Source: Calditrichia bacterium
GTDB lineage: Bacteria; Calditrichota; Calditrichia; RBG-13-44-9; J075
Assembly: GCA_020635015.1 (NCBI GenBank)
Contig: JACKAP010000011.1
Span: 39,025 to 103,024, forward strand
Length of the DNA stretch: 64,000 nucleotides
Direction of reading: 5' to 3'
Below are positions 3,296-50,980 of the stretch, in pieces. How positions within the stretch are numbered: position 1 is the stretch's first letter; each line of letters opens with the position of its first letter. The translations under genes were made by a program, and so were the position numbers. The notes beneath the pieces are model-generated. The model saw only the letters and a list, made by a program, of their open reading frames with translations. It ran no database searches and was not told where the DNA came from.

Positions 3296-3419
3296 CTGCG
3301 CTTTGCGCGATGTTTGTTCGCTTCGCTCCGGTAGCGCGATGTTTTTCGCTCATCTTAATTTGCGTTTTGCGCCCGATGAAACATCGAACAAACATCGAGG
3401 CAGCGAACAAACATCGAGG
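3296..3419. repeat. GATGTTTG(Y)TCGC-family units in inverted arrangement (relative of the 23-bp array at 12575)
   Basis: Forward units are gcgcgatgtttgttcgcttcgctc (3305-3328) and gcgcgatgtttttcgctcatc (3334-3354). Reverse-orientation units lie in gaaacatcgaacaaacatcgaggcagcgaacaaacatcgagg (3378-3419). cgatgtttgttcg and cgaacaaacatcg are exact reverse complements. Confidence 0.85.
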
Positions 3420-8645: not shown

Positions 8646-11600
8646 TTAAAACAGCTTCAACTGCGAATCATCCTTCGGTTTGGCGGGTTTGTGCGGAGGG
8701 GCTTTTTTGAGCTCTTTGAGGGCGGTTTCGATGTTGCCGAGATAGCGCGAGGGGGTGGGGGCGTGTTTCTTGCCGGCCATGGTGCGCGATTGGGCATGGG
8801 TCAGGATCAGGTGCTCCTGCGCCCGGGTCATACCGACATAGAACAAACGCCGCTCTTCCGCTTCATCGATTTTCATGCCCGGGCGGCGGAAGGGAATCAG
8901 CCCCTCCTCGCAACCCACAATGAATACCACCGGAAATTCCAGCCCCTTGGAGGCGTGCAGGGTCATCAGTGTCACCCGGTCGGCCCGGGGATCATATTGA
9001 TCGATCGCGGTTTGCAGGGCGATATCCTCTAAAAAATCGCCCAGGCGTTTCTCGAAGGGGCGGGCGTGCTGCACCAGGCGGCGGATGAGATAAAGCTCAT
9101 CCCCATCTACCGCTCGCGACTGATCCAGCAGGATAAAAGAGTGGATCTTTGAGATCAACTCGGCCAGCGGCAACTCCATCCGCGCTGCCTGATACTGCTG
9201 CAGGGCCGGCACGATGGTGCTCAGGCGCTTTTCCTGCCCGGCACTGAACAACTGATGCGCTCGGCAATGTTGTACCGCCTCGCGAAAGCCCACGCCGTCC
9301 TGTGCCTGGAAAAGCCCGCCCTGCCGGTCGATCCTTTCCTGCACCTGCGGCAGTGCTTCTCCCAAGATCGTCTCCAGATGAAACAGCGCCGTGGGATTAT
9401 GCAGCAACTGCAGGTAGGCCAGCAGTTCCCGTACCGGCTTTTGTTCAAATATCGGCAATTGTCCAACACTCTGGTAGGGGATGCCGGAGCGCTGGAATGC
9501 CTCGCTGAGCAGTGCATTCTGCGCGCTGAGCCGGTAGAGCACCGCCACATCGCCAAAGCCGCGCTGCGGGGGTTGCCTCATCGGGATCGACCCGCCCGGA
9601 GTCGTGGGAAAAATAGCTGGTGCCGCCAACCATCCGCTCTACCTGATGTACCGCATATTCCGCTTCTGCCCGGTCGGTTGGCGCTTGATAGATCTCCACC
9701 TTGTAGCGCCCGGCAATCCCGGTCCAGATATCCTGCCCCGGGAGGCCGCTGCCGGCGTCGATCACCTGGCGAGAGGCGCTGAGGATCGGCCGGCTGGAGC
9801 GGTAGTTCTGGCGCAGGCGGATTTCCCGGGCAGCGGGATAATCTTCCTGAAACTTCAGGAAATAACTGCGATCCGCTCCCCGGAAGCCGTAGATGGCCTG
9901 ATCCGGATCGCCGATGACACATAGATTCACTTCCGGTGGAGTGAGCAGGCGCAGCAGGCGGTACTGGGCGTAGTTGACATCCTGGTATTCATCCACCGAG
10001 ATCCAGCGGAAGCGGGCCTGGATGCGCTGAAGTATCTCTGGATGGCTCTCCAGCATGGTGGCCGGGAGCAGCAGCAGATCGTCATAGTCGAGCATCTCCC
10101 TTGCTGTCAGGGCGGCCTGATAGGCGTGGTAAACTTCAGGAAAATTTTCCGGAGCGGATATCTGAGCGTTCAATTCCGGATGGCCCGGTGGGAGCAGCAA
10201 ATTCTTGGCTTCGGAAATGGAGGCGAGAAGCCGTCTGGATTTGCGTTCGCCGAGATTCGGGAAGCAGCGTTGGAAAAAGGATTCCCGGTTCCGCTCCCGG
10301 AGGATGGTGAAATTGGGCCCCATGCCGATGACGCCGCCCTCCTCGCGCAGCAGTAATGCGCCGAAGGCGTGGAAGGTGCGGATAACCATTTGCGCCGCAA
10401 TTTCCTCGCCGGTGAGGGCTGCCAGTCGTTCGCGCATTTCCCGGGCGGCCTTGTTGGTGAAAGTGATGGCCAGGATCGCATCCGCTGTGGCTTTGCCGTC
10501 AGCCAGCAGCAGCGCAATCCAGTGGGTGAGTGTGCGGGTTTTGCCGGTTCCCGGCCCGGCGAGAATGAGCAGGTTTTGCTCGTGGCATAGCGCCGCCGCC
10601 TGCTGCTCGGGATTCAAACCGGCCAGCAGCGCTTCGGCGGTTATGCTCGATTGATCCGGCAGCGCTGCTGGAGATCCGGCGAGCATGTTTTGGGGCTTCT
10701 GCGTTTGTTTGCGCCTTGCCGCGTCTACATTCGCCTTCGCAGATTTCTTCGGAAAAGCGGCGGTGGTTTCGGCTGCCGGCGGCGGTTGATCCATCCCGGC
10801 CGGCCGGGTTTTTCCAAACAGATCCAGTTGGGGAGTGAAGATGTCTCTTTCGGATTTTTCGAACAGCTTGATGATCCCAAACTCTCCGTCATAGCCGGCG
10901 TCAATATGCACTTCGCCCCGGCGCATGCGGCGGATCGCTTCTTTGAGCCGGGCACCGCCCAGCCGTTCCAGCTCTTCCAGGGGGGCGTCTTGCAGAATGC
11001 TTAACTCCGGGCCGAGTTTGGCCAGCAGATTGGCATGCAGCCGGCGAACCCCTTTTCGAAGCGGGCCCGACGCCGAGCACCTCCGCCAGCACTTCCGGCA
11101 AGGGTATCAGGCTGACATAAGGATGCCAGCGCTCCGGTTTGACGCCTTCCGGACGGTCGGCCAACTCTGCCACCCGGTGCATCACTCCAACCGTCACCGG
11201 CCGTCCGCAGACCGGGCAGCGGCTATCGTGATCGCGAGTGGTCTGCGGAGCCCAGCGAATGCCGCATTTGCGGTGTCCGTCAAAGTGATATTTCCCTCCT
11301 CCGGAAAAACTCGATCGTGCCCTTGAAACGATCCGGATCGCCGTTTTTCAAAGCATCAAAAATCGCCGGGTAGGAGAGCTCGGTCTCAAAATGGTTTGCC
11401 TCCCGGGCCAGCTTGGGTGGGGAGTGGGCATCGGAATTGGAAACCAGGGTGAAGCGGTCGAGTGCGGAAAGCTGCCAGTTCATCGGCGGATCGGAGGAAA
11501 GGCCGGTCTCCAGGGCAAAAATGTGCGGGGTGAGGTCTTCGAAACATTCCTCGATCCGGTCAAACCCGGATTTGGAGCCAAAGAGAGAAAACCAGGGGTC

Positions 11601-12097
11601 CAAATATGAGCCGGGATCAGGTAGGCCTGGGGATCGGTTTCCAATACGATCTCGAACAGATCGCGGGCGTCCAGCCCCAGGATGGGGCGGCCGTCGGAAC
11701 GGATGTTGCCGATTTTTTCCAGCTCGATCTGGAATGTCTCCACCGCTTCCAGGGAGGGGAGGAACACCACATTGTGGATCTTGCGGACTTTATCGAATTT
11801 CTTGTAGATATTGCTGATCTCGCCGGCCAGCATAAAGCGCACTTCTCCCCGGCAGGCCGGCGGGATTTCCGGATCGACGTCGGCCGCAACCTCCGCTTTG
11901 AGGCGGAACAGCCCGGCCTCCGCCGGTTCCAGCTTTTCGCGCATCTCCTCCAGCCAGCCGGGATGGGCGATGTCGCCGCTGCCCACCACTTGCACTCCCT
12001 TCAGTTGCGCCCATTTGTAAAGCTGCTCAAAATTGAGATCCTTGCTGGTCGCCCGCGAATAATGGGAGTGGATGTGCAGATCGGCGATAATCTTCAT
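8646..12097 (-). pseudogene. EndoQ-like PHP-domain endonuclease fused to a UvrD/PcrA-type SF1 helicase (~1,150 aa if repaired), interrupted by four frameshifts
   Basis: Five ORF-track pieces are colinear with one protein. 11480..12097 carries MKIIADLHIHSHYS...IPAHIWTP. 11280..11603 carries PWFSLFGSKSGFD...ALETGLSSDP...VSNSDAHSP...GTIEFF. 10901..11197 carries a zinc-finger region and VGVMHRVAEL. 9445..10926 carries RMRRGEVHIDAGYDGEFG then LILAGPGTGKT...VDEYQD...IGDPDQAIYGFRGA. 8646..9629 carries FGDVAVLYR...LMTLHASKGLEFP...LFYVGMTRA. Frame changes map to homopolymer runs at 11595-11598, 11294-11304, 11049-11052 and about 9568-9572. Confidence 0.8.
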
Positions 12098-12117
12098 CGG
12101 TTATCCCTAACCCTTGT

Positions 12118-12513
12118 TTAATCTTTGATCAGCATTCCCAGCGCCGCGCCGGCCGCGGTCGCTTCGATCATGGTGCCCAGAAACCAGACCAGGGCCATGT
12201 AATAGTCGATCGGCATGGTGGCGTAGGTGCCGTAACCCATTGAAATGCCGGCACCGACGCCGAAAACCAGCCCGTAAATTACCCCCGGCATCATCCCTTT
12301 ATCTTTGAGCAGTTGAGCGTAAATATAGACGAAAGTAAAGGCTGAGACCAGCCGCACAAAATTCAGCAGCCCCATCTTCATGTCTTCCATGGTGCGGTAG
12401 AGTTCCGGATGATTGGCATAACTGCTTCCCAGGATCATCCCATGTATCACATAATCCAGCACAAACCAGATGATAAACACCACAACGGTACCCAATGCAA
12501 GCTTTTTGGCCAT
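12118..12513 (-). CDS. Small integral membrane protein (about 4 TM; possibly DUF1761-like)
   Basis: ORF of 131 aa with clear hydrophobic helices (LGTVVVFIIWFVLDYVIHGMIL, FVRLVSAFTFVYIYAQ, GVIYGLVFGVGAGISMG, YYMALVWFLGTMIEA). The family assignment is tentative. Confidence 0.6.
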   Translation of the reverse strand: MAKKLALGTVVVFIIWFVLDYVIHGMILGSSYANHPELYRTMEDMKMGLLNFVRLVSAFTFVYIYAQLLKDKGMMPGVIYGLVFGVGAGISMGYGTYATMPIDYYMALVWFLGTMIEATAAGAALGMLIKD

Positions 12514-12574
12514 GATTAACCTCCAATATTGGTTAGTGGGAGAATGTAGTAAACTCGGGGGAAATATGAAAGGA

Positions 12575-12956
12575 CGATGTTAGCTCGCTGTCGCTCGCGA
12601 TGTTAGCTCGCTGTCGCTCGCGATGTTAGCTCGCTGTCGCTCGCGATGTTAGCTCGCTGTCGCTCGCGATGTTAGCTCGCTGTCGCTCGCGATGTCGCTG
12701 TCGCGATGTTAGCTCGCTGTCGCTCGCGATGTTAGCTCGCTGTCGCTCGCGATGTTAGCTCGCTGTCGCTCGCGATGTTAGCTCGCTGTCGCTCGCGATG
12801 TTAGCTCGCTGTCGCTCGCGATGTTAGCTCGCTGTCGCTCGCGATGTTAGCTCGCTGTCGCTCGCGATGTTAGCTCGCTGTCGCTCGCGATGTTAGCTCG
12901 CTGTCGCTCGCGATGTTAGCTCGCTGTCGCTCGCGATGTTAGCTCGCTGTCGCTCG
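12575..12956. repeat. Tandem array of 16 identical 23-bp units CGATGTTAGCTCGCTGTCGCTCG plus one 14-nt truncated unit
   Basis: Counted by hand. Units start at 12575 and repeat every 23 nt. One short unit cgatgtcgctgtcg lies at 12690-12703, and the array resumes at 12704 and ends at 12956. There are no spacers, and the period is not divisible by 3. Confidence 0.95.
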
Positions 12957-13124
12957 CGTTCATAATGATCGCCGAAGGCAAATATCGTCGGCGTAGCCGA
13001 CAAACATCGTGAGCGAAGCGAGCAAATATCGCGCGCAGCGCAAACATCGTGAGCGAAGCGAACAAACATCGCGCGCAGCGCAAACATCGTGAGCGAAGCG
13101 AGCAAACATCGCCGGCTACGCCGG
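12957..13124. repeat. Block of degenerate, opposite-orientation relatives of the 23-bp unit (18- and 22-nt units forming a ~40-nt higher-order repeat)
   Basis: The block contains tgagcgaagcgagcaaatatcg cgcgcagcgcaaacatcg tgagcgaagcgaacaaacatcg cgcgcagcgcaaacatcg tgagcgaagcgagcaaacatcg gccggctacgccggc. The reverse complement of a 22-nt unit matches the 23-bp unit at about 20 of 23 positions. The block ends exactly at the ggt stop codon. Confidence 0.9.
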
Positions 13125-14837
13125 CTAATACCCCACCGCCGCCCCATCCGCGCTGCGCGGGTCGCAGCCGCCGGTTCGCAGATTGCTTTCCGGGTCGATA
13201 TAAATGCCCATCGCCTGGCCCTGGGCACGGCGCCAGCGGATGTGGTGACCTCTGGCTTCCAGCTTCTCCACCGAGTCGTTGGTCGTGCCCCATTTTTCGA
13301 TCCTGGTAACATCGGGCAGCCATTGGTGGTGAAAGCGCGGTGCGTTGACTGCCTCGAAAATATTCATGTCAAAATCGACCACGTTGAGGATGCATTGCAG
13401 CACTGTGTTGATGATGGTGCGCCCGCCCGGCGTGCCGATCAGCATAATCGTCTTGCCGTCCTTCGCCAGAATGCTTGGGGTCATCGAGGAAAGCATCCGC
13501 TTATCCGGCTGCACCAGGTTGGGTTGGGTGCCGATCAAACCAGTCGAATCGGTATGGCCGGGCCAGGGATTGAAATCGCCCATCTCATTGTTGAGCAGGA
13601 AGCCGGCGCCGTTGAGCACGATCCGCGAGCCATAGCTGTATTCCAGGGTATAGGTGTTGGAAACGGCGTTGCCGTCTTTATCCACTACCGAAAAATGGGT
13701 GGTCTCTTCCGATTCCTCTCCCCAGTCGAAAGATGCCGGGTCGCTGACCGAGGTTTTTTCCATGCTGATGGTGCGGCGCAGCGCCTCGGCATAGGATTTG
13801 TCGAGCAGTTTTTCCAACGGCAGGTCGGGATTAAAATCCGGATCGCCCAGGTGCTCGGCGCGGTCGGCGTAGGCCCGGCGCATCGCTTCGGTGACCACAT
13901 GAATATAGTCGGCGGAATTATGCCCCATCTTTTCCAGATTATATCCTTCCAAAATATTAAGCATGATCGACAGGGTGATGCCGCCGGAACTGGGTGGCGC
14001 CATGGAATAGAGGGTATAGCCGCGGTAACTGTTTTCTACCGGTTTCCGCTCCACCGCCTGGTAGGCGGCGAGATCCGCGCGAGTGATCAACCCCCCGTTC
14101 GCTTTCATCTCAGTTTCAAATATTTCCGCAGTTTTGCCTTTGTAAAATCCGTCGCGACCTTTTTCGGCAATACGCCGCAGGGTAGCGGCCAGATCAGGCT
14201 GCTGCCAGATCTCATCCATCTCGTAGAAGCTGCCGTCCGGTTTGGAGAACTTCTTTACCGACCCGGGATAATCGGCAAATTGCGGGGCGAGGTATTGAAA
14301 ATCGCGCACCAGGTTGTAGGAGAGCACAAAGCCGTTTTCGGCGAGTTCAATTGCGGGCTGCAGCACCTCCGCCAGCGTCATGGTGCCATATTTTTCCAGG
14401 GCCGCGGCGAAGCCGGCCACGGTGCCGGGCACGCCCACCGCCAGGTAGCCGTCGTGGTTGAGATTGCGGACCAGTTGGCCATTCTCATCCAAATACATCT
14501 TCTCATGGGCGGCTTTGGGCGCTTTTTCCCGGTAGTCGAAAGTGGTGCAGGTGCCGTCGGCCAGGCGGATGACCATGAACCCGCCGCCTCCGATGTTCCC
14601 GGCGCTGGGATGCACCACTGCCAGGGCAAAGCCGGTCGCCACCGCTGCGTCCACCGCATTGCCGCCACGCTTGAGGATTTCCGTTCCGACCTCCGAGGCG
14701 ATACGGTTGGTGGAAACCACCATGCCGTGTTTGGCATACACCGGCCATTTCTGAGCCTGAAGTGTAGTTACAGAAAATAATGTCAGGATAACAAATAGTG
14801 TAATCCGGAAAAGCAAATCGGTAAATCGACGACTCAT
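13125..14837 (-). CDS. ggt: Gamma-glutamyltranspeptidase
   Basis: Part of ORF 13125..14936. It shows GGNAVDAAVATGFALAVVHPSAGNIGGGGFMV, the autoprocessing-site context ETTHFSVVDKDGNAVS, and GTPGGRTIINTV. I set the start at ATG 14837 (MSRRFTDLLFRITLFVILTLFSVTTLQA signal peptide). Confidence 0.92.
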   Translation of the reverse strand: MSRRFTDLLFRITLFVILTLFSVTTLQAQKWPVYAKHGMVVSTNRIASEVGTEILKRGGNAVDAAVATGFALAVVHPSAGNIGGGGFMVIRLADGTCTTFDYREKAPKAAHEKMYLDENGQLVRNLNHDGYLAVGVPGTVAGFAAALEKYGTMTLAEVLQPAIELAENGFVLSYNLVRDFQYLAPQFADYPGSVKKFSKPDGSFYEMDEIWQQPDLAATLRRIAEKGRDGFYKGKTAEIFETEMKANGGLITRADLAAYQAVERKPVENSYRGYTLYSMAPPSSGGITLSIMLNILEGYNLEKMGHNSADYIHVVTEAMRRAYADRAEHLGDPDFNPDLPLEKLLDKSYAEALRRTISMEKTSVSDPASFDWGEESEETTHFSVVDKDGNAVSNTYTLEYSYGSRIVLNGAGFLLNNEMGDFNPWPGHTDSTGLIGTQPNLVQPDKRMLSSMTPSILAKDGKTIMLIGTPGGRTIINTVLQCILNVVDFDMNIFEAVNAPRFHHQWLPDVTRIEKWGTTNDSVEKLEARGHHIRWRRAQGQAMGIYIDPESNLRTGGCDPRSADGAAVGY

Positions 14838-14938
14838 ATTGCCCAAAATTATCCTCCATTCTGCCGTGATAAGGCGTGAATTGATCGTTGATGGGAAGCG
14901 TGATAAATGAAAGAGCGCTCTGCGTACCATCTGCATAT

Positions 14939-20823: not shown

Positions 20824-20990
20824 AAGTTTGTTCGCTGTCGCTCACGATGTTTGCTCGCAGTTGCTCGCGATATTCGTTCGCTGTCGCTCACGATGTTTGC
20901 TCGCAGTTGCTCGCGATATTTGTTCGCTGTCGCTCACGATGTTTGCTCGCAGTTGCTCGCGATATTTGTTCGCTGTCGCTCACGATGTTG
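20824..20990. repeat. About 3.5 copies of a 46-bp (2 x 23) higher-order repeat of the GATGTTTGCTCGC family
   Basis: The unit (gatatttgttcgctgtcgctcac gatgtttgctcgcagttgctcgc) is repeated. It gives rise to the spurious overlapping ORFs 20641-21340 in the track. Confidence 0.9.
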
Positions 20991-21018
20991 ATTTTAGATC
21001 CAATATCAATTACCTTTT

Positions 21019-21067
21019 CCCTTCGCCCTTCGCCCTTCGCCCTTCGCCCTTCGCCCTTCGCCCTTCG
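21019..21067. repeat. Perfect heptamer array (CCCTTCG) x7
   Basis: Counted by hand from 21019 to 21067. Confidence 0.95.
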
Positions 21068-21073
21068 CGCCTT

Positions 21074-21286
21074 TCATTCCGCACTCCGCATTCCGCACTC
21101 CGCATTCGCCTCATCCCTCACCCAGATCCGGCAGAATTTTACCCCGCTGCGGGAATTGATTTGAACATCCGGCGTGCCCGGTGGGATGTCCGAGCCGCAG
21201 ACCATGATCCGTTTGTAACCGTTGCAGCATTTATCGGCGTCGTTGGGCGATTTCCATACATGACGCTTGGTTCGGCAGAAGAACAT
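21074..21286 (-). CDS. Small cysteine-rich protein (70 aa), function unknown
   Basis: ORF MFFCRTKRHVWKSPNDADKCCNGYKRIMVCGSD... The ATG lies 2 nt after the stop of the upstream 4-TM gene (GTC TGA GC ATG), suggesting translational coupling. The C-terminal ~12 codons are encoded by a heptamer repeat, so the native end is uncertain. Confidence 0.4.
   Translation of the reverse strand: MFFCRTKRHVWKSPNDADKCCNGYKRIMVCGSDIPPGTPDVQINSRSGVKFCRIWVRDEANAECGMRSAE
21075..21109. repeat. Heptamers CATTCCG/CACTCCG x5 (reverse complement of the 4043-4091 array)
   Basis: The sequence is cattccg cactccg cattccg cactccg cattcgc. It overlaps the last codons of the small ORF 21074..21286. Confidence 0.9.
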
Positions 21287-43642: not shown

Positions 43643-43837
43643 TTTTTGGGGCACTCACACCATCGGAAGCAGTGCCGGTTTGAGCAGGCGCATTTTCACC
43701 ATCGTCATAAAAAAAAATCTGCCAGAGTGGAATTTAAAAATCATGGGAACGATCTAGGCGTGTTGACATTTAGCCGGTCGGATTGGTGGTGGAGAAGGGC
43801 AGGGGGAGGGGCGGGCTGTGGGCGTGTATTTTTGAAA

Positions 43838-43914
43838 GGATGAAGGATGAAGGATAAAGGATGAAGGATGAAGGATGAAGGATAAAGGATGAAGGATGAA
43901 GGATGAAGGATGAA
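43838..43914. repeat. Heptamer array (GGATGAA / GGATAAA) x11
   Basis: Counted by hand: 2 x ggatgaa, ggataaa, 3 x ggatgaa, ggataaa, 4 x ggatgaa. Confidence 0.95.
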
Positions 43915-43967
43915 GAAAATCTTGCGAAAAGTGCTTGGTCATGGAAATAGATTTCGTTTTGTTCTAA

Positions 43968-44037
43968 CATCCAACATCCAACATCCAATATCCAACATCC
44001 AACATCCAACATCCAACATCCAACATCCAACATCCAG
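43968..44037. repeat. Heptamer array (CATCCAA) x10, partly complementary to the GGATGAA array
   Basis: Counted by hand; the variants are tatccaa and catccag. It ends 6 nt from the aminotransferase stop codon. GGATG pairs with CATCC in every unit (5 of 7 positions). Confidence 0.95.
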
Positions 44038-44043
44038 CATCTG

Positions 44044-50793: not shown

Positions 50794-50980
50794 GATGTTT
50801 GCTCGCCGGCGCAGCCAGCAAATATCACGAGTGACGCGAGTAAACATCGCCGAAGGCAAACATCGTGAGCGAAGCGAACCAACATCGCTGGCGCAGTCAG
50901 CAAATATCGCCGCAGGCAAATATCACGAGCGCAGCGAGTAAACATCGCGCGGAGCGCAAACATCGCCGGCGCCGCCGGCA
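50794..50980. repeat. Degenerate array of the GATGTTTGCTCGC / GCGAGCAAACATCG family ending at the glgX stop codon
   Basis: One forward unit (gatgtttgctcgcc) is followed by about 8 reverse-orientation units ending in (a/t)atc(g/a). The terminal aaacatcgccggcgccgccggcaCTA parallels aaacatcgccggctacgccggCTA at the ggt stop. Confidence 0.85.

Follow-up and report, generated by a model that had tools for sequence, protein, structure and literature searches.

An expanded 23-bp repeat array behind a ggt gene in a Calditrichia bacterium belongs to a genome-wide family of intergenic tandem DNA mini-hairpins

The closest described counterparts of the repeats analyzed here are the REP, BIME and REPIN sequences of E. 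coli and Pseudomonas, short extragenic imperfect palindromes that are present in hundreds of copies as singlets, inverted doublets forming larger hairpins, and ordered tandem clusters; in Pseudomonas fluorescens SBW25, tandem REP arrays switch orientation with genome position (PMC3116915). The BrickBuilt MITE of Porphyromonas gingivalis (19 copies, confined to Porphyromonas) carries intergenic spacerless tandem 23-nt repeats in 1 to 22.8 copies, with strain-variable copy number, predicted long stem-loops, and no Rfam match (PMC4596501). The TAACTGA heptamers of Beggiatoaceae, Cyanobacteria, and Bacteroidetes form pure intergenic arrays that can reach 43 copies and usually lie directly upstream of start codons, and their patchy phylogeny suggests horizontal spread by a mechanism that is not known (PMC4679880). 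In addition, the 23S rRNA intervening sequences with an S23p ORF found in Coxiella and Leptospira are regarded as selfish elements (PMC4990558), and the published DNA mini-hairpins occur singly, at promoters and single-strand origins of phages or plasmids (PMC13037366).

The window, a 64,000-nt stretch of one contig of a Calditrichia bacterium, contains an element of two inverted repeat arms between two genes. The relevant features of the window are as follows.

13125..14936, minus strand: ggt, gamma-glutamyltranspeptidase gene (Pfam G_glu_transpept, PF01019, E = 1.9e-168), upstream of the element
13111..13125, minus strand: outermost hairpin GCCGGC-GTA-GCCGGC, whose first G is also the final G of TAG, the ggt stop codon
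12971..13125, plus strand: short arm, 8 mini-hairpin bodies and 7 AAAYATC linkers
12957..12970, no strand: unique 14-nt centre CGTTCATAATGATC between the two arms
12575..12956, minus strand: expanded arm, 16 units of 23 nt each, linker TAACATC plus body GCGAGC-GACA-GCGAGC
12690..12703, minus strand: 14-nt truncated unit CGATGTCGCTGTCG, lacking two small pieces (9 nt in total) of the full unit
12118..12513, minus strand: orf131, a 131-aa predicted membrane protein, downstream of the element on the ggt strand
20826..20990, plus strand: second family array, 7 units with a 46-bp two-unit period, reverse orientation
50842..50962, plus strand: third family member, 5 forward units
3298-3320: single family unit

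An exact scan found CGATGTTAGCTCGCTGTCGCTCG in 16 exact copies, five at 12575-12689 and 11 at 12704-12956, and Tandem Repeats Finder gave a period of 23 with 100% matches on either side of the 14-nt unit; both agree with the original prediction of 16 perfect units plus one of 14 nt at 12575-12956. This array had zero matches in 100 dinucleotide-preserving shuffles. The expanded arm is in the "forward" (F) orientation on the strand shared by ggt and orf131. The short arm is F on the plus strand, hence the "reverse" (R) arm on the gene strand, where its units read as a hairpin followed by GAUGUUU or GAUAUUU. Its bodies are 9, 11, or 15 nt long, so together with the 7-nt linker they give units of 16, 18, and 22 nt. 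The earlier description gave about seven inverted units of 16-22 nt; the block starts at 12971, after the 14-nt centre, and contains seven linkers and eight bodies. The mini-hairpins named within it are present. The reverse-complement match to the 23-mer at about 20 of 23 positions applies only to the GTGAGCGAAGCGAGC-type units (one indel and 1-2 mismatches), whereas the remaining bodies differ. The centre is identical in the independent assemblies L015 and L016; unique centres of other composite loci are ~20-90 nt long.

The element occupies 551 of the 611 bp separating ggt and orf131, both on the minus strand as had been proposed, and the orf131 leader at 12514-12574 (61 nt, with a GGAGG ribosome-binding site) is the sole spacer remnant beyond it. 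At the other end, the element supplies a base of the ggt stop codon, and of 212 outer ends in the genome, 18 have a terminal linker that provides the stop codon for the gene next to it. Since TAG on the plus strand and TAA on the minus strand occur in every unit, coding by the array is impossible, as was also concluded earlier. Shortened units were also seen within other long arrays of the same kind (C8:134503 and C12:638351); the unit at 12690-12703 is either a true slippage product or a consensus error.

The 23-mer is better read on the strand opposite to that originally written, as a 7-nt linker followed by a self-folding mini-hairpin. Units run head-to-tail in both arms, and each comprises the linker (AAAYATC on the "forward" strand), which is the most conserved part, and then a hairpin with a stem of 3, 4, or 6 bp closed by either a GNA or a GNNA loop. 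Two sheared G.A mismatches are frequent in the longer stems. GNA loops were found in 86% of the 15-nt bodies and GNNA loops in the 16-nt bodies, and a C-G closing pair in 81 of 90 distinct units. The fold is maintained in the family, as shown by covariation. Among 90 distinct 22-nt units, the stem changes on both sides at all 6 pairs, with 73 compensatory cells versus 29.6 +/- 4.0 in shuffles (0/500 as high) and a covariation score of 0.374 versus 0.206 in shuffles and at most 0.084 with slid partners. At stem positions 3 and 4 the units have Watson-Crick pairs or, within a Y-GA-R context, G.A/A.G.

The hairpin cores of the units are the DNA mini-hairpin motifs GCGNAGC, GCGNNAGC, and CCGAAGG, and they have the same C-G closing pair and sheared G.A in the loop as the published mini-hairpins (motif definition in PMC13037366). 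The window 23-mer includes GCGACAGC, and the body of the expanded arm, with its GCGNNAGC core and tandem G.A mismatches, is of a type common to 282 other 16-nt bodies genome-wide. In contrast to the single hairpins published previously, the family repeats them ~900 times, in tandem arrays and with extended covarying stems (PMC13037366). Mini-hairpins, so far described at a few promoters and single-strand origins, here make up a high-copy bacterial repeat family. Nearest-neighbour DNA folding, in which sheared G.A pairs are unmodelled, fails to predict the G.A-type hairpins (-1.7 to -3.1 kcal/mol), and their presumed stability is taken from published work on the core motifs, not on these exact sequences. 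Under the mini-hairpin reading, d(GCGAGCGACAGCGAGC) and d(GTGAGCGAAGCGAAC) are predicted to be folding oligonucleotides. It is conceivable, though unlikely, that arrays of such presumably ultra-stable hairpins in the leading-strand template also signal SSB-free priming or restart, by analogy with the ssi hairpins of phage G4 and RSF1010.

A genome-wide search with the 23-mer, allowing up to 4 mismatches, gave 296 matches at more than 120 places. The array is thus not singular but forms an arm of a single element within a family of ~195 loci with about 860-900 units (864 structured units in 195 loci versus 11 in a reversed-genome control). The units lie almost all between gene calls, and their spacing peaks at 16, 18, 22, and 23 nt. 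The majority of loci are single arms. An arm usually has 2-10 units, the forward arm at 12575-12956 being far longer, and the longest family array in the assembly has 37. A sister family with the linker YAATGAC is also present; AAAYATC and YAATGAC are the only linker families that join tandem GNA hairpins genome-wide. Outer ends of the elements are linkers (GATRTTT ... AAAYATC). No multi-unit element was found copied intact between loci, and copy-paste of composite elements was rejected because the long inter-locus matches are merely homogeneous arrays. A search for a clean empty site, a target duplication, or a mobilising enzyme of the family revealed none.

It is probable that the region 12575-13125 is a copy of a small non-coding repeat element whose forward arm was overgrown by slippage, and that its family is selfish or neutral, of horizontal origin, and represented here by a gene-less cassette form. 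This copy is probably co-transcribed with ggt and orf131 and would then place an imperfect double-stranded stem of ~150 bp and a run of weak hairpin-U-tract terminators right behind ggt. The family is a variant of REP/BIME-like extragenic repeats, with which it shares extragenic imperfect palindromes in hundreds of copies, occurring as singlets, inverted doublets, and ordered clusters. Its units are far shorter than REPs (16-23 nt including the linker) and abut without spacers; they lack a GTAG-type tetranucleotide, the constant part being the linker AAAYATC (YAATGAC in the sister family), and the arms are direct arrays with one orientation switch rather than alternating units. Like BrickBuilt, the family has intergenic spacerless tandem repeats, strain-variable copy number, and predicted long stem-loops. 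Unlike BrickBuilt, its elements have no leader or tail, the arms being the repeats themselves, and it crosses phyla; a BrickBuilt-type MITE was rejected, since the outer ends are linkers and no obvious duplication was seen at the elements. Similarly to the TAACTGA heptamers, it iterates a short constant 7-mer between genes and is patchily distributed, but its 7-mers are separated by hairpins and set in inverted arms.

Composite loci consist of a reverse arm, a unique centre, and a forward arm. This polarity is strict: close reverse-forward pairs outnumber forward-reverse pairs 21 to 2 in this genome, 13 to 0 in the YAATGAC sister family, and 27 to 4 on metagenome contigs. The forward strand of the arrays tends to be the locally C-rich strand (Fisher p = 4e-7), and concordance with GC skew rises with array size, from 17 of 36 single units to 26 of 36 arrays of 2-3 units and 51 of 63 with at least 4. 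The four most lopsided elements (long arms of 37, 16, 14, and 11 units), the window locus among them, are all skew-concordant; where the two arms of a composite differ little, the longer one agrees with the skew at just 8 of 14 loci. Array orientation showed no bias with respect to transcription (60 vs 51, p = 0.45), and the GC-skew bias of the YAATGAC family is not significant. Replication direction was inferred from GC skew on a 56-contig draft in which origin and terminus are not located; the skew forms coherent domains, is correlated with gene strand (rho = 0.36), and equals +0.02 to +0.03 at the window locus.

The rise of the bias with array length suggests that slippage is more likely while the hairpin strand is being made as the lagging strand. 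The array behind ggt would have grown by replication slippage or by unequal exchange between identical units, preferentially with the strongly folding forward strand as the nascent lagging strand, as appears to be the case at this locus; hairpins in Okazaki fragments would then add units instead of removing them. The instability of repeats that form hairpins (CTG/CAG in E. coli and yeast) reportedly depends on their orientation (Kang et al. 1995; Trinh & Sinden 1991), and in cloned triplet repeats the structure-prone strand is said to delete as lagging-strand template and expand as nascent lagging strand. The orientation of the family arrays implies the same pattern, except that the CTG/CAG rule is experimental and concerns cloned triplets, while here it is deduced from the genome-wide orientation of natural 16-23-nt units (for a general framework, see PMC12708500). 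A replication-strand bias rising with array length offers a natural genome-wide test of the triplet-repeat orientation rule.

Comparison with other genomes points to arrival from outside the phylum. The family pattern gave 386 matches in this genome versus 0 in 85 other genomes of the phylum. The ggt orthologues of related genera (64-72% identity) have no array behind them, and the ggt loci of six related genera showed neither the array nor conserved synteny. The family is present in Paludibacter-like genomes, which gave the only real hits among the matches listed in a loose-pattern scan; the strict two-linker pattern was detected in 3 of 401 Bacteroidales genomes, where the family is sparse. 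At least 103 metagenome contigs, none of this species, carry the family (median GC 39%), and no match was found in viral contigs. Because the 85 other genomes of the phylum lack the family, whereas it is common in Bacteroidales-like genomes of low GC, this species probably acquired it horizontally, judging from presence/absence and GC content. Recent expansion or turnover, as proposed originally, is plausible, since sister loci are strain-variable and related genera are array-free behind ggt.

Family arms enclose or flank a gene for a four-helix-bundle protein (23S-rRNA-IVS-protein, PF05635) in three examples.

C56:101662-102497, this genome: PF05635 gene between inverted family arms
G087:C5:151230, Paludibacteraceae genome: PF05635 gene between inverted family arms
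L226, metagenome contig: PF05635 gene with direct family arms

All four-helix-bundle genes examined, here and in Paludibacter-like genomes, lie between arms of phased 6-8-nt motifs. At C56 the protein (C56:101964-102284) is 125 aa long. The copy at C56 resembles the 23S rRNA intervening sequences in nesting a small PF05635 gene within long-stem inverted arms, but the family lies between protein genes, is mostly ORF-less, and has arms of linker-plus-hairpin tandems (PMC4990558). The window element, like most loci, lacks the gene; since its 14-nt centre has no ORF, it may be considered a gene-less relative of the PF05635 cassettes. It is conceivable, though on balance unlikely, that the arrays are non-autonomous arms of cross-phylum hairpin cassettes with four-helix-bundle Avd/IVS-protein-like genes, passed between phyla (for example from Bacteroidota-like donors to this Calditrichota species) through a single-stranded DNA intermediate at the fork, with the linker as a putative enzyme site. 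Patchy spread across phyla, strict arm polarity, and the link with four-helix-bundle genes in three unrelated genomes point to a mode of spread beyond the known mobile-element mechanisms.

A strict REP/REPIN element, in which the units are recognition hairpins spread by a Y1/HUH (RAYT- or IS200-like) transposase that sets their orientation at the fork, would account for short extragenic hairpins in hundreds of copies, for inverted doublets building larger hairpins, and for the patchy cross-phylum distribution. The orientation of IS200/IS605 elements is tied to the replication strand, as is that of the present arrays, and the tandem REP arrays of SBW25 likewise switch orientation with genome position. 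The family, however, has a constant 7-nt linker in place of a GTAG-like tetranucleotide, and no RAYT gene flanked by it was found, PF01797 giving two matches in this genome (83.6% complete). The sole intact Y1_Tnp gene found (C2:59905-60252) has copies of an unrelated GC-rich repeat beside it, AAAYATC units being absent for 1.4 kb around, and the second match is weak and has an internal stop, so the RAYT hypothesis is unsupported; a cognate Y1/HUH enzyme could have been missed given the incompleteness of the genome. Inverted doublets favour the reverse-forward order, yet single arms account for the majority of loci and no intact second copy of a composite was seen. Single units are unbiased (17/36) and the bias appears only as arrays grow, which fits growth and loss dynamics better than oriented insertion, and the lagging-strand template, expected to be single-stranded, bears the weaker-folding reverse strand. 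We therefore consider this explanation unlikely.

Equally doubtful is a selected RNA-level role, in which the element would be an intercistronic stem of the ggt-orf131 transcript acting in termination, insulation, or stabilisation or as a substrate of RNase III, its copy number tuning downstream expression. The placement is suggestive, as the element starts at the ggt stop codon and stops 61 nt short of orf131. According to the folding of the gene-sense RNA, the 150-nt inverted block pairs with the first ~7 array units, with a minimum free energy of -285.9 kcal/mol versus -230.4 +/- 7.6 in shuffles (z = -7.3), which bears out the original prediction that the two blocks can form an imperfect hairpin of ~150 bp. 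Reverse-arm units consist of a hairpin and a U-rich tract, and the short arm gave 5 terminator-like matches on the minus strand versus 1.4 expected. With reverse-then-forward polarity, transcripts from either side first meet hairpin-U units, and REPs and BrickBuilt are reported to influence transcripts (PMC4596501). Rfam gave no match across 11500-14000, even at E up to 1. Against such a role, single-arm arrays have no orientation preference relative to flanking co-directional genes (60 vs 51), units occur in all intergenic contexts including divergent ones, and unit number at other loci varies between strains with no sign of constraint; in addition, GNA loops and Y-GA-R mismatches are the rule in exceptionally stable hairpins of DNA rather than in RNA hairpins. 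More probably, the family consists of selfish or neutral DNA that does not serve the ggt operon.

An assembly artefact could also explain why the array is so long and so uniform; the true locus would then contain a smaller or larger number of units, or a more diverse set. The same inverted block, centre, and 23-mers occur in ten independent short-read metagenome assemblies of this species, all of which end or have an N gap within the array, so the 16 copies and the 14-nt unit are resolved only in the window assembly. Scaffold gaps imply a spacer of ~420-460 bp instead of 611 bp, although these sizes are rough estimates. Compared with a short-read assembly, the window assembly shows four indels of 1-2 nt in a nearby gene, which is intact elsewhere; consensus errors within the array are conceivable, and the 14-nt unit might be a polishing error. 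Every assembly nevertheless contains the array, the contig ends showing at least 3-6 identical units, and family arrays of up to 37 units occur in the window assembly. Differences in unit number at a sister locus are real: next to a four-helix-bundle gene, gap-free assemblies show an arm of 8, 9, 10, or 11 units, compared with 13 in this genome. Between strains, unit number at the msrB locus is 3, 4, or 7, and at the bcp locus at least 15 or only one half. An artefact is improbable, and growth by slippage is the preferred explanation of the array length. The arrays break short-read assemblies of the lineage and are usable as length-variable strain markers.

A phased protein-binding array, in which the linkers are iterated sites, for example for the four-helix-bundle protein, and the hairpins mere spacers, appears very improbable. 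The linker is indeed the most conserved part, only two linker families join tandem GNA hairpins genome-wide, and the four-helix-bundle genes examined sit between arms of phased motifs. The spacing, however, varies (16, 18, 22, and 23 nt), so the sites are not helically phased, and the strong covariation of the stems means that the supposed spacers are themselves constrained. Most loci, the window included, have no four-helix-bundle gene nearby, and we know of no DNA- or RNA-binding specificity of PF05635 proteins.

A CRISPR array, already dismissed in view of the absence of spacers, was rejected because the units abut and vary only in palindromic hairpins that belong to a limited common set, as was an iteron array because the repeats occur at ~195 loci and the neighbours (ggt, a TonB-dependent receptor, the small membrane protein, and a UvrD-type helicase) are non-replicative, in line with the earlier remark that no replication gene is nearby. 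The protein encoded by orf131 had no Pfam match; its exact sequence was detected in 14 contigs from other assemblies.

The array lying next to the gamma-glutamyltranspeptidase gene (ggt) in the window is real, and it belongs to a REP-like family of canonical DNA mini-hairpins, named here the AAAYATC family after its 7-nt linker. The main interest lies in this family and less in the single locus: its arms keep a strict polarity, its growth appears to be linked to replication, it occurs across phyla, and some copies carry a four-helix-bundle gene. As described in the original prediction, 16 perfect 23-mers CGATGTTAGCTCGCTGTCGCTCG are present at 12575-12956, arranged as 5 + 11 and divided by one 14-nt unit (12690-12703); shuffled sequence gave no such match. 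The oppositely oriented block proposed to follow the array was also recovered at 12971-13125 and comprises 7 linkers and 8 small hairpins. The other features of the locus are as follows:

12957-12970: unique centre of 14 nt between the array and the inverted block
13125-14936, minus strand: ggt (Pfam G_glu_transpept), whose TAG stop overlaps the outermost hairpin by one base
12118-12513, same strand as ggt: ORF of 131 aa, starting 61 nt beyond the other end of the element

On the strand of ggt and the ORF, the 23-mer consists of the linker TAACATC and the self-folding body GCGAGC-GACA-GCGAGC. The arms, with 7 and 16 linkers, have the same build as in other composites of the family. The array was correctly judged to be non-coding: every unit contains a stop triplet on each strand (TAG and TAA, respectively), which limits read-through to ~22 codons. 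In the sense-RNA fold, the short arm is predicted to pair with the first ~7 units of the long arm (MFE -285.9 vs. -230.4 ± 7.6 kcal/mol for shuffles, z = -7.3), so that the giant hairpin suggested earlier is a real possibility. In the sense orientation the short arm represents a string of hairpins plus U-rich segments (5 terminator-like matches vs. 1.4 expected). Rfam contained nothing for the window element.

The genome-wide search for the 23-mer that had been suggested gave 296 matches (≤4 mismatches) spread over more than 120 places of the genome (5.68 Mb, 56 contigs, 55.8% GC). Linker-to-linker distances show sharp peaks at 16, 18, 22 and 23 nt, corresponding to bodies of 9, 11, 15 and 16 nt with stems of 3, 4 or 6 bp and a 3- or 4-nt loop. 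A strict structural search found 864 units in 195 loci, compared with 11 in the reversed-genome control.

The units have kept their hairpin fold. In a set of 90 distinct 22-nt units, two-sided changes were observed at all six stem pairs, with 73 compensatory cells vs. 29.6 ± 4.0 after shuffling (none of 500 shuffles was equally high) and a covariation score of 0.374 vs. 0.206 for shuffled units and ≤0.084 with slid partners. At stem positions 3 and 4 there are Watson-Crick pairs or a tandem G.A/A.G mismatch, the latter always in a pyrimidine-GA-purine context. Of the 15-nt bodies, 86% have a GNA loop; the 16-nt bodies have GNNA, and the closing pair is C-G. These rules are those of the DNA mini-hairpins d(GCGNAGC), d(GCGNNAGC) and d(CCGAAGG), which owe their stability, much higher in DNA than in RNA, to two G-C pairs and a sheared G.A pair (PMC13037366). 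Standard nearest-neighbour folding of the units misses this stability. Since the complement would have TNC loops and pyrimidine mismatches, only the forward strand, reading linker and then hairpin, is the structured one.

The same species was retrieved from many metagenome assemblies using exact-protein look-ups. The window locus has an identical short arm, centre and 23-mers in other assemblies, and every short-read assembly stops or has Ns within the array; the array is therefore real and longer than assemblers can span, and the count of 16 belongs to this assembly alone. Unit numbers vary at other loci: 8, 9, 10 or 11 in gap-free assemblies of the four-helix-bundle locus, with 13 in this genome, and 3, 4 or 7 in an arm at msrB. 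Upstream of the bcp peroxiredoxin gene there are two strain haplotypes (loci L160 vs. L161 and C1:461003-461520 of this genome), one with at least 15 units and ~600 bp of stacked repeat elements, the other with ~70 bp of unrelated, unique DNA that terminates in only half a unit. At the four-helix-bundle locus, one assembly (L140, compared with L141-L149) has a shorter arm and joins the element on the right to a DAO/FAD oxidoreductase gene, not DUF885; this junction reflects either rearrangement at the repeat or chimerism of the assembly. Compared with one metagenome assembly, the window shows 1.7% substitutions and four 1-2-nt indels within a gene intact there, which suggests that it represents a different strain, contains consensus errors from long reads, or both. 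The gene, for a PHP/UvrD-type helicase (8646-12097), is split in the window and is a single intact 1151-aa gene in metagenome assemblies L015 and L016; the indels lie partly in homopolymers, and the split may reflect assembly errors rather than a pseudogene.

On either strand, composites read as a reverse arm, a unique centre and a forward arm. Close reverse-forward pairs outnumber forward-reverse pairs 21 to 2 in this genome and 27 to 4 in metagenome contigs. The outer ends are usually linkers themselves; in 18 cases out of 212, the abutting gene takes its TGA stop from the terminal linker. A sister family, in which the linker YAATGAC (reverse GTCATTR) lies between 3-5-bp GNA mini-hairpins (~300 units in 96 arrays genome-wide), shows 13 reverse-forward pairs and no forward-reverse pair. 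Examples outside the window are:

C34:8090-8260: sister-family repeats
C12:293480-293620: sister-family repeats

Single-arm arrays between co-directional genes carry the forward orientation on the sense strand in 60 cases and the reverse in 51 (p = 0.45). The forward strand falls on the locally C-rich strand far above chance (Fisher p = 4e-7, local GC skew). Contigs are divided into coherent domains of GC skew, and the skew correlates with gene strand (rho = 0.36), which speaks for using it as a leading-strand proxy; array orientation tracks replication, as read from this proxy, and not transcription. The bias is lacking in single units (17/36 concordant), is seen with 2-3 units (26/36) and is strong with ≥4 units (51/63). 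The longest concordant array has 37 units, discordant ones have at most 9, and the four most lopsided composites, including the window element, are all concordant. Hairpins on the nascent lagging strand would favour unit gain, and those on the lagging-strand template unit loss; this rule would give the size-dependent bias observed. It was reportedly established for CTG/CAG repeats by Kang et al. in 1995 and Trinh & Sinden in 1991. A general framework for orientation-dependent instability of hairpin repeats is available (PMC12708500). The replication case is weakened by the short arrays of the sister family, which show no GC-skew bias, and by composites with small arm differences, concordant in only 8 of 14 cases.

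One AAAYATC element (C56:101662-102497) encloses a gene for a 125-aa four-helix-bundle protein (PF05635, the "23S rRNA intervening-sequence protein" family). The genome has five PF05635 genes:

C12:27751-28062
C6:62497-62787
C56:148114-148434
C12:438252-438512
C56:101964-102284

The other four also lie between inverted arms, built of other short tandem motifs, and the motif differs for each gene (GGCAGT, GATGGGTG, GTTGGAT and others). Ten PF05635 genes examined in Paludibacter-like genomes are likewise located between such arms, one with GATATTT/AAATATC linkers, and one metagenome contig has AAATATC arrays flanking a PF05635 gene. Homologues sharing 65-72% identity were found in several phyla; most of them lie on contigs of very small size. 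These elements recall the intervening sequences of 23S rRNA, considered to be selfish elements (PMC4990558).

A two-linker pattern gave 386 hits in this genome and none in 85 further genomes of the phylum, among them the other species of the genus; no array accompanies the ggt orthologues of six related genera. In Paludibacter-like and other Bacteroidales genomes, units with identical linker and bodies (GCGAACGAAGTGAGC, GTGAGCGAAGCGAAC, GCCGAAGGC) are present in low copy number, a strict pattern being matched by only 3 of 401 sampled Bacteroidales genomes. Metagenome contigs with such units number at least 103, and this species accounts for none of them (median GC 39%, arrays of up to 19 units); the viral contigs searched gave no match.

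No enzyme able to move the units was found in the genome, nor were a clean empty site or a composite intact at two loci. A Y1 transposase is not supported as the mover, as its sole intact gene carries its own, different repeats. This RAYT-like gene (within the locus C2:59300-60700, L001) is flanked on both sides by GC-rich GGCCCGAAGGGCCAC...GCCCCGTCAGGGGCGTCCCAAG repeats, which also occur within the centre of one AAAYATC element (C5:93563-93825). No description of the family was found in the searchable literature. The nearest described are REP/BIME/REPIN elements; the 23-nt minisatellite MITE BrickBuilt from Porphyromonas gingivalis, with IS5-type ends plus leader and tail segments; and TAACTGA heptamer repeats, which have a patchy distribution.

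Other repeats were observed in the window. Within 20826-21109, an AAAYATC-family array (7 units, 46-bp period) is directly followed by (CCCTTCG)x7.7 and (CATTCCGCACTCCG)x2.4, so that one intergenic gap accumulates different repeat families. At 43836-43915 and 43966-44041, heptamer arrays (AAGGATG)x11 and (AACATCC)x11 face each other across ~50 nt, and AACATCC resembles the AAACATC linker of the AAAYATC family.
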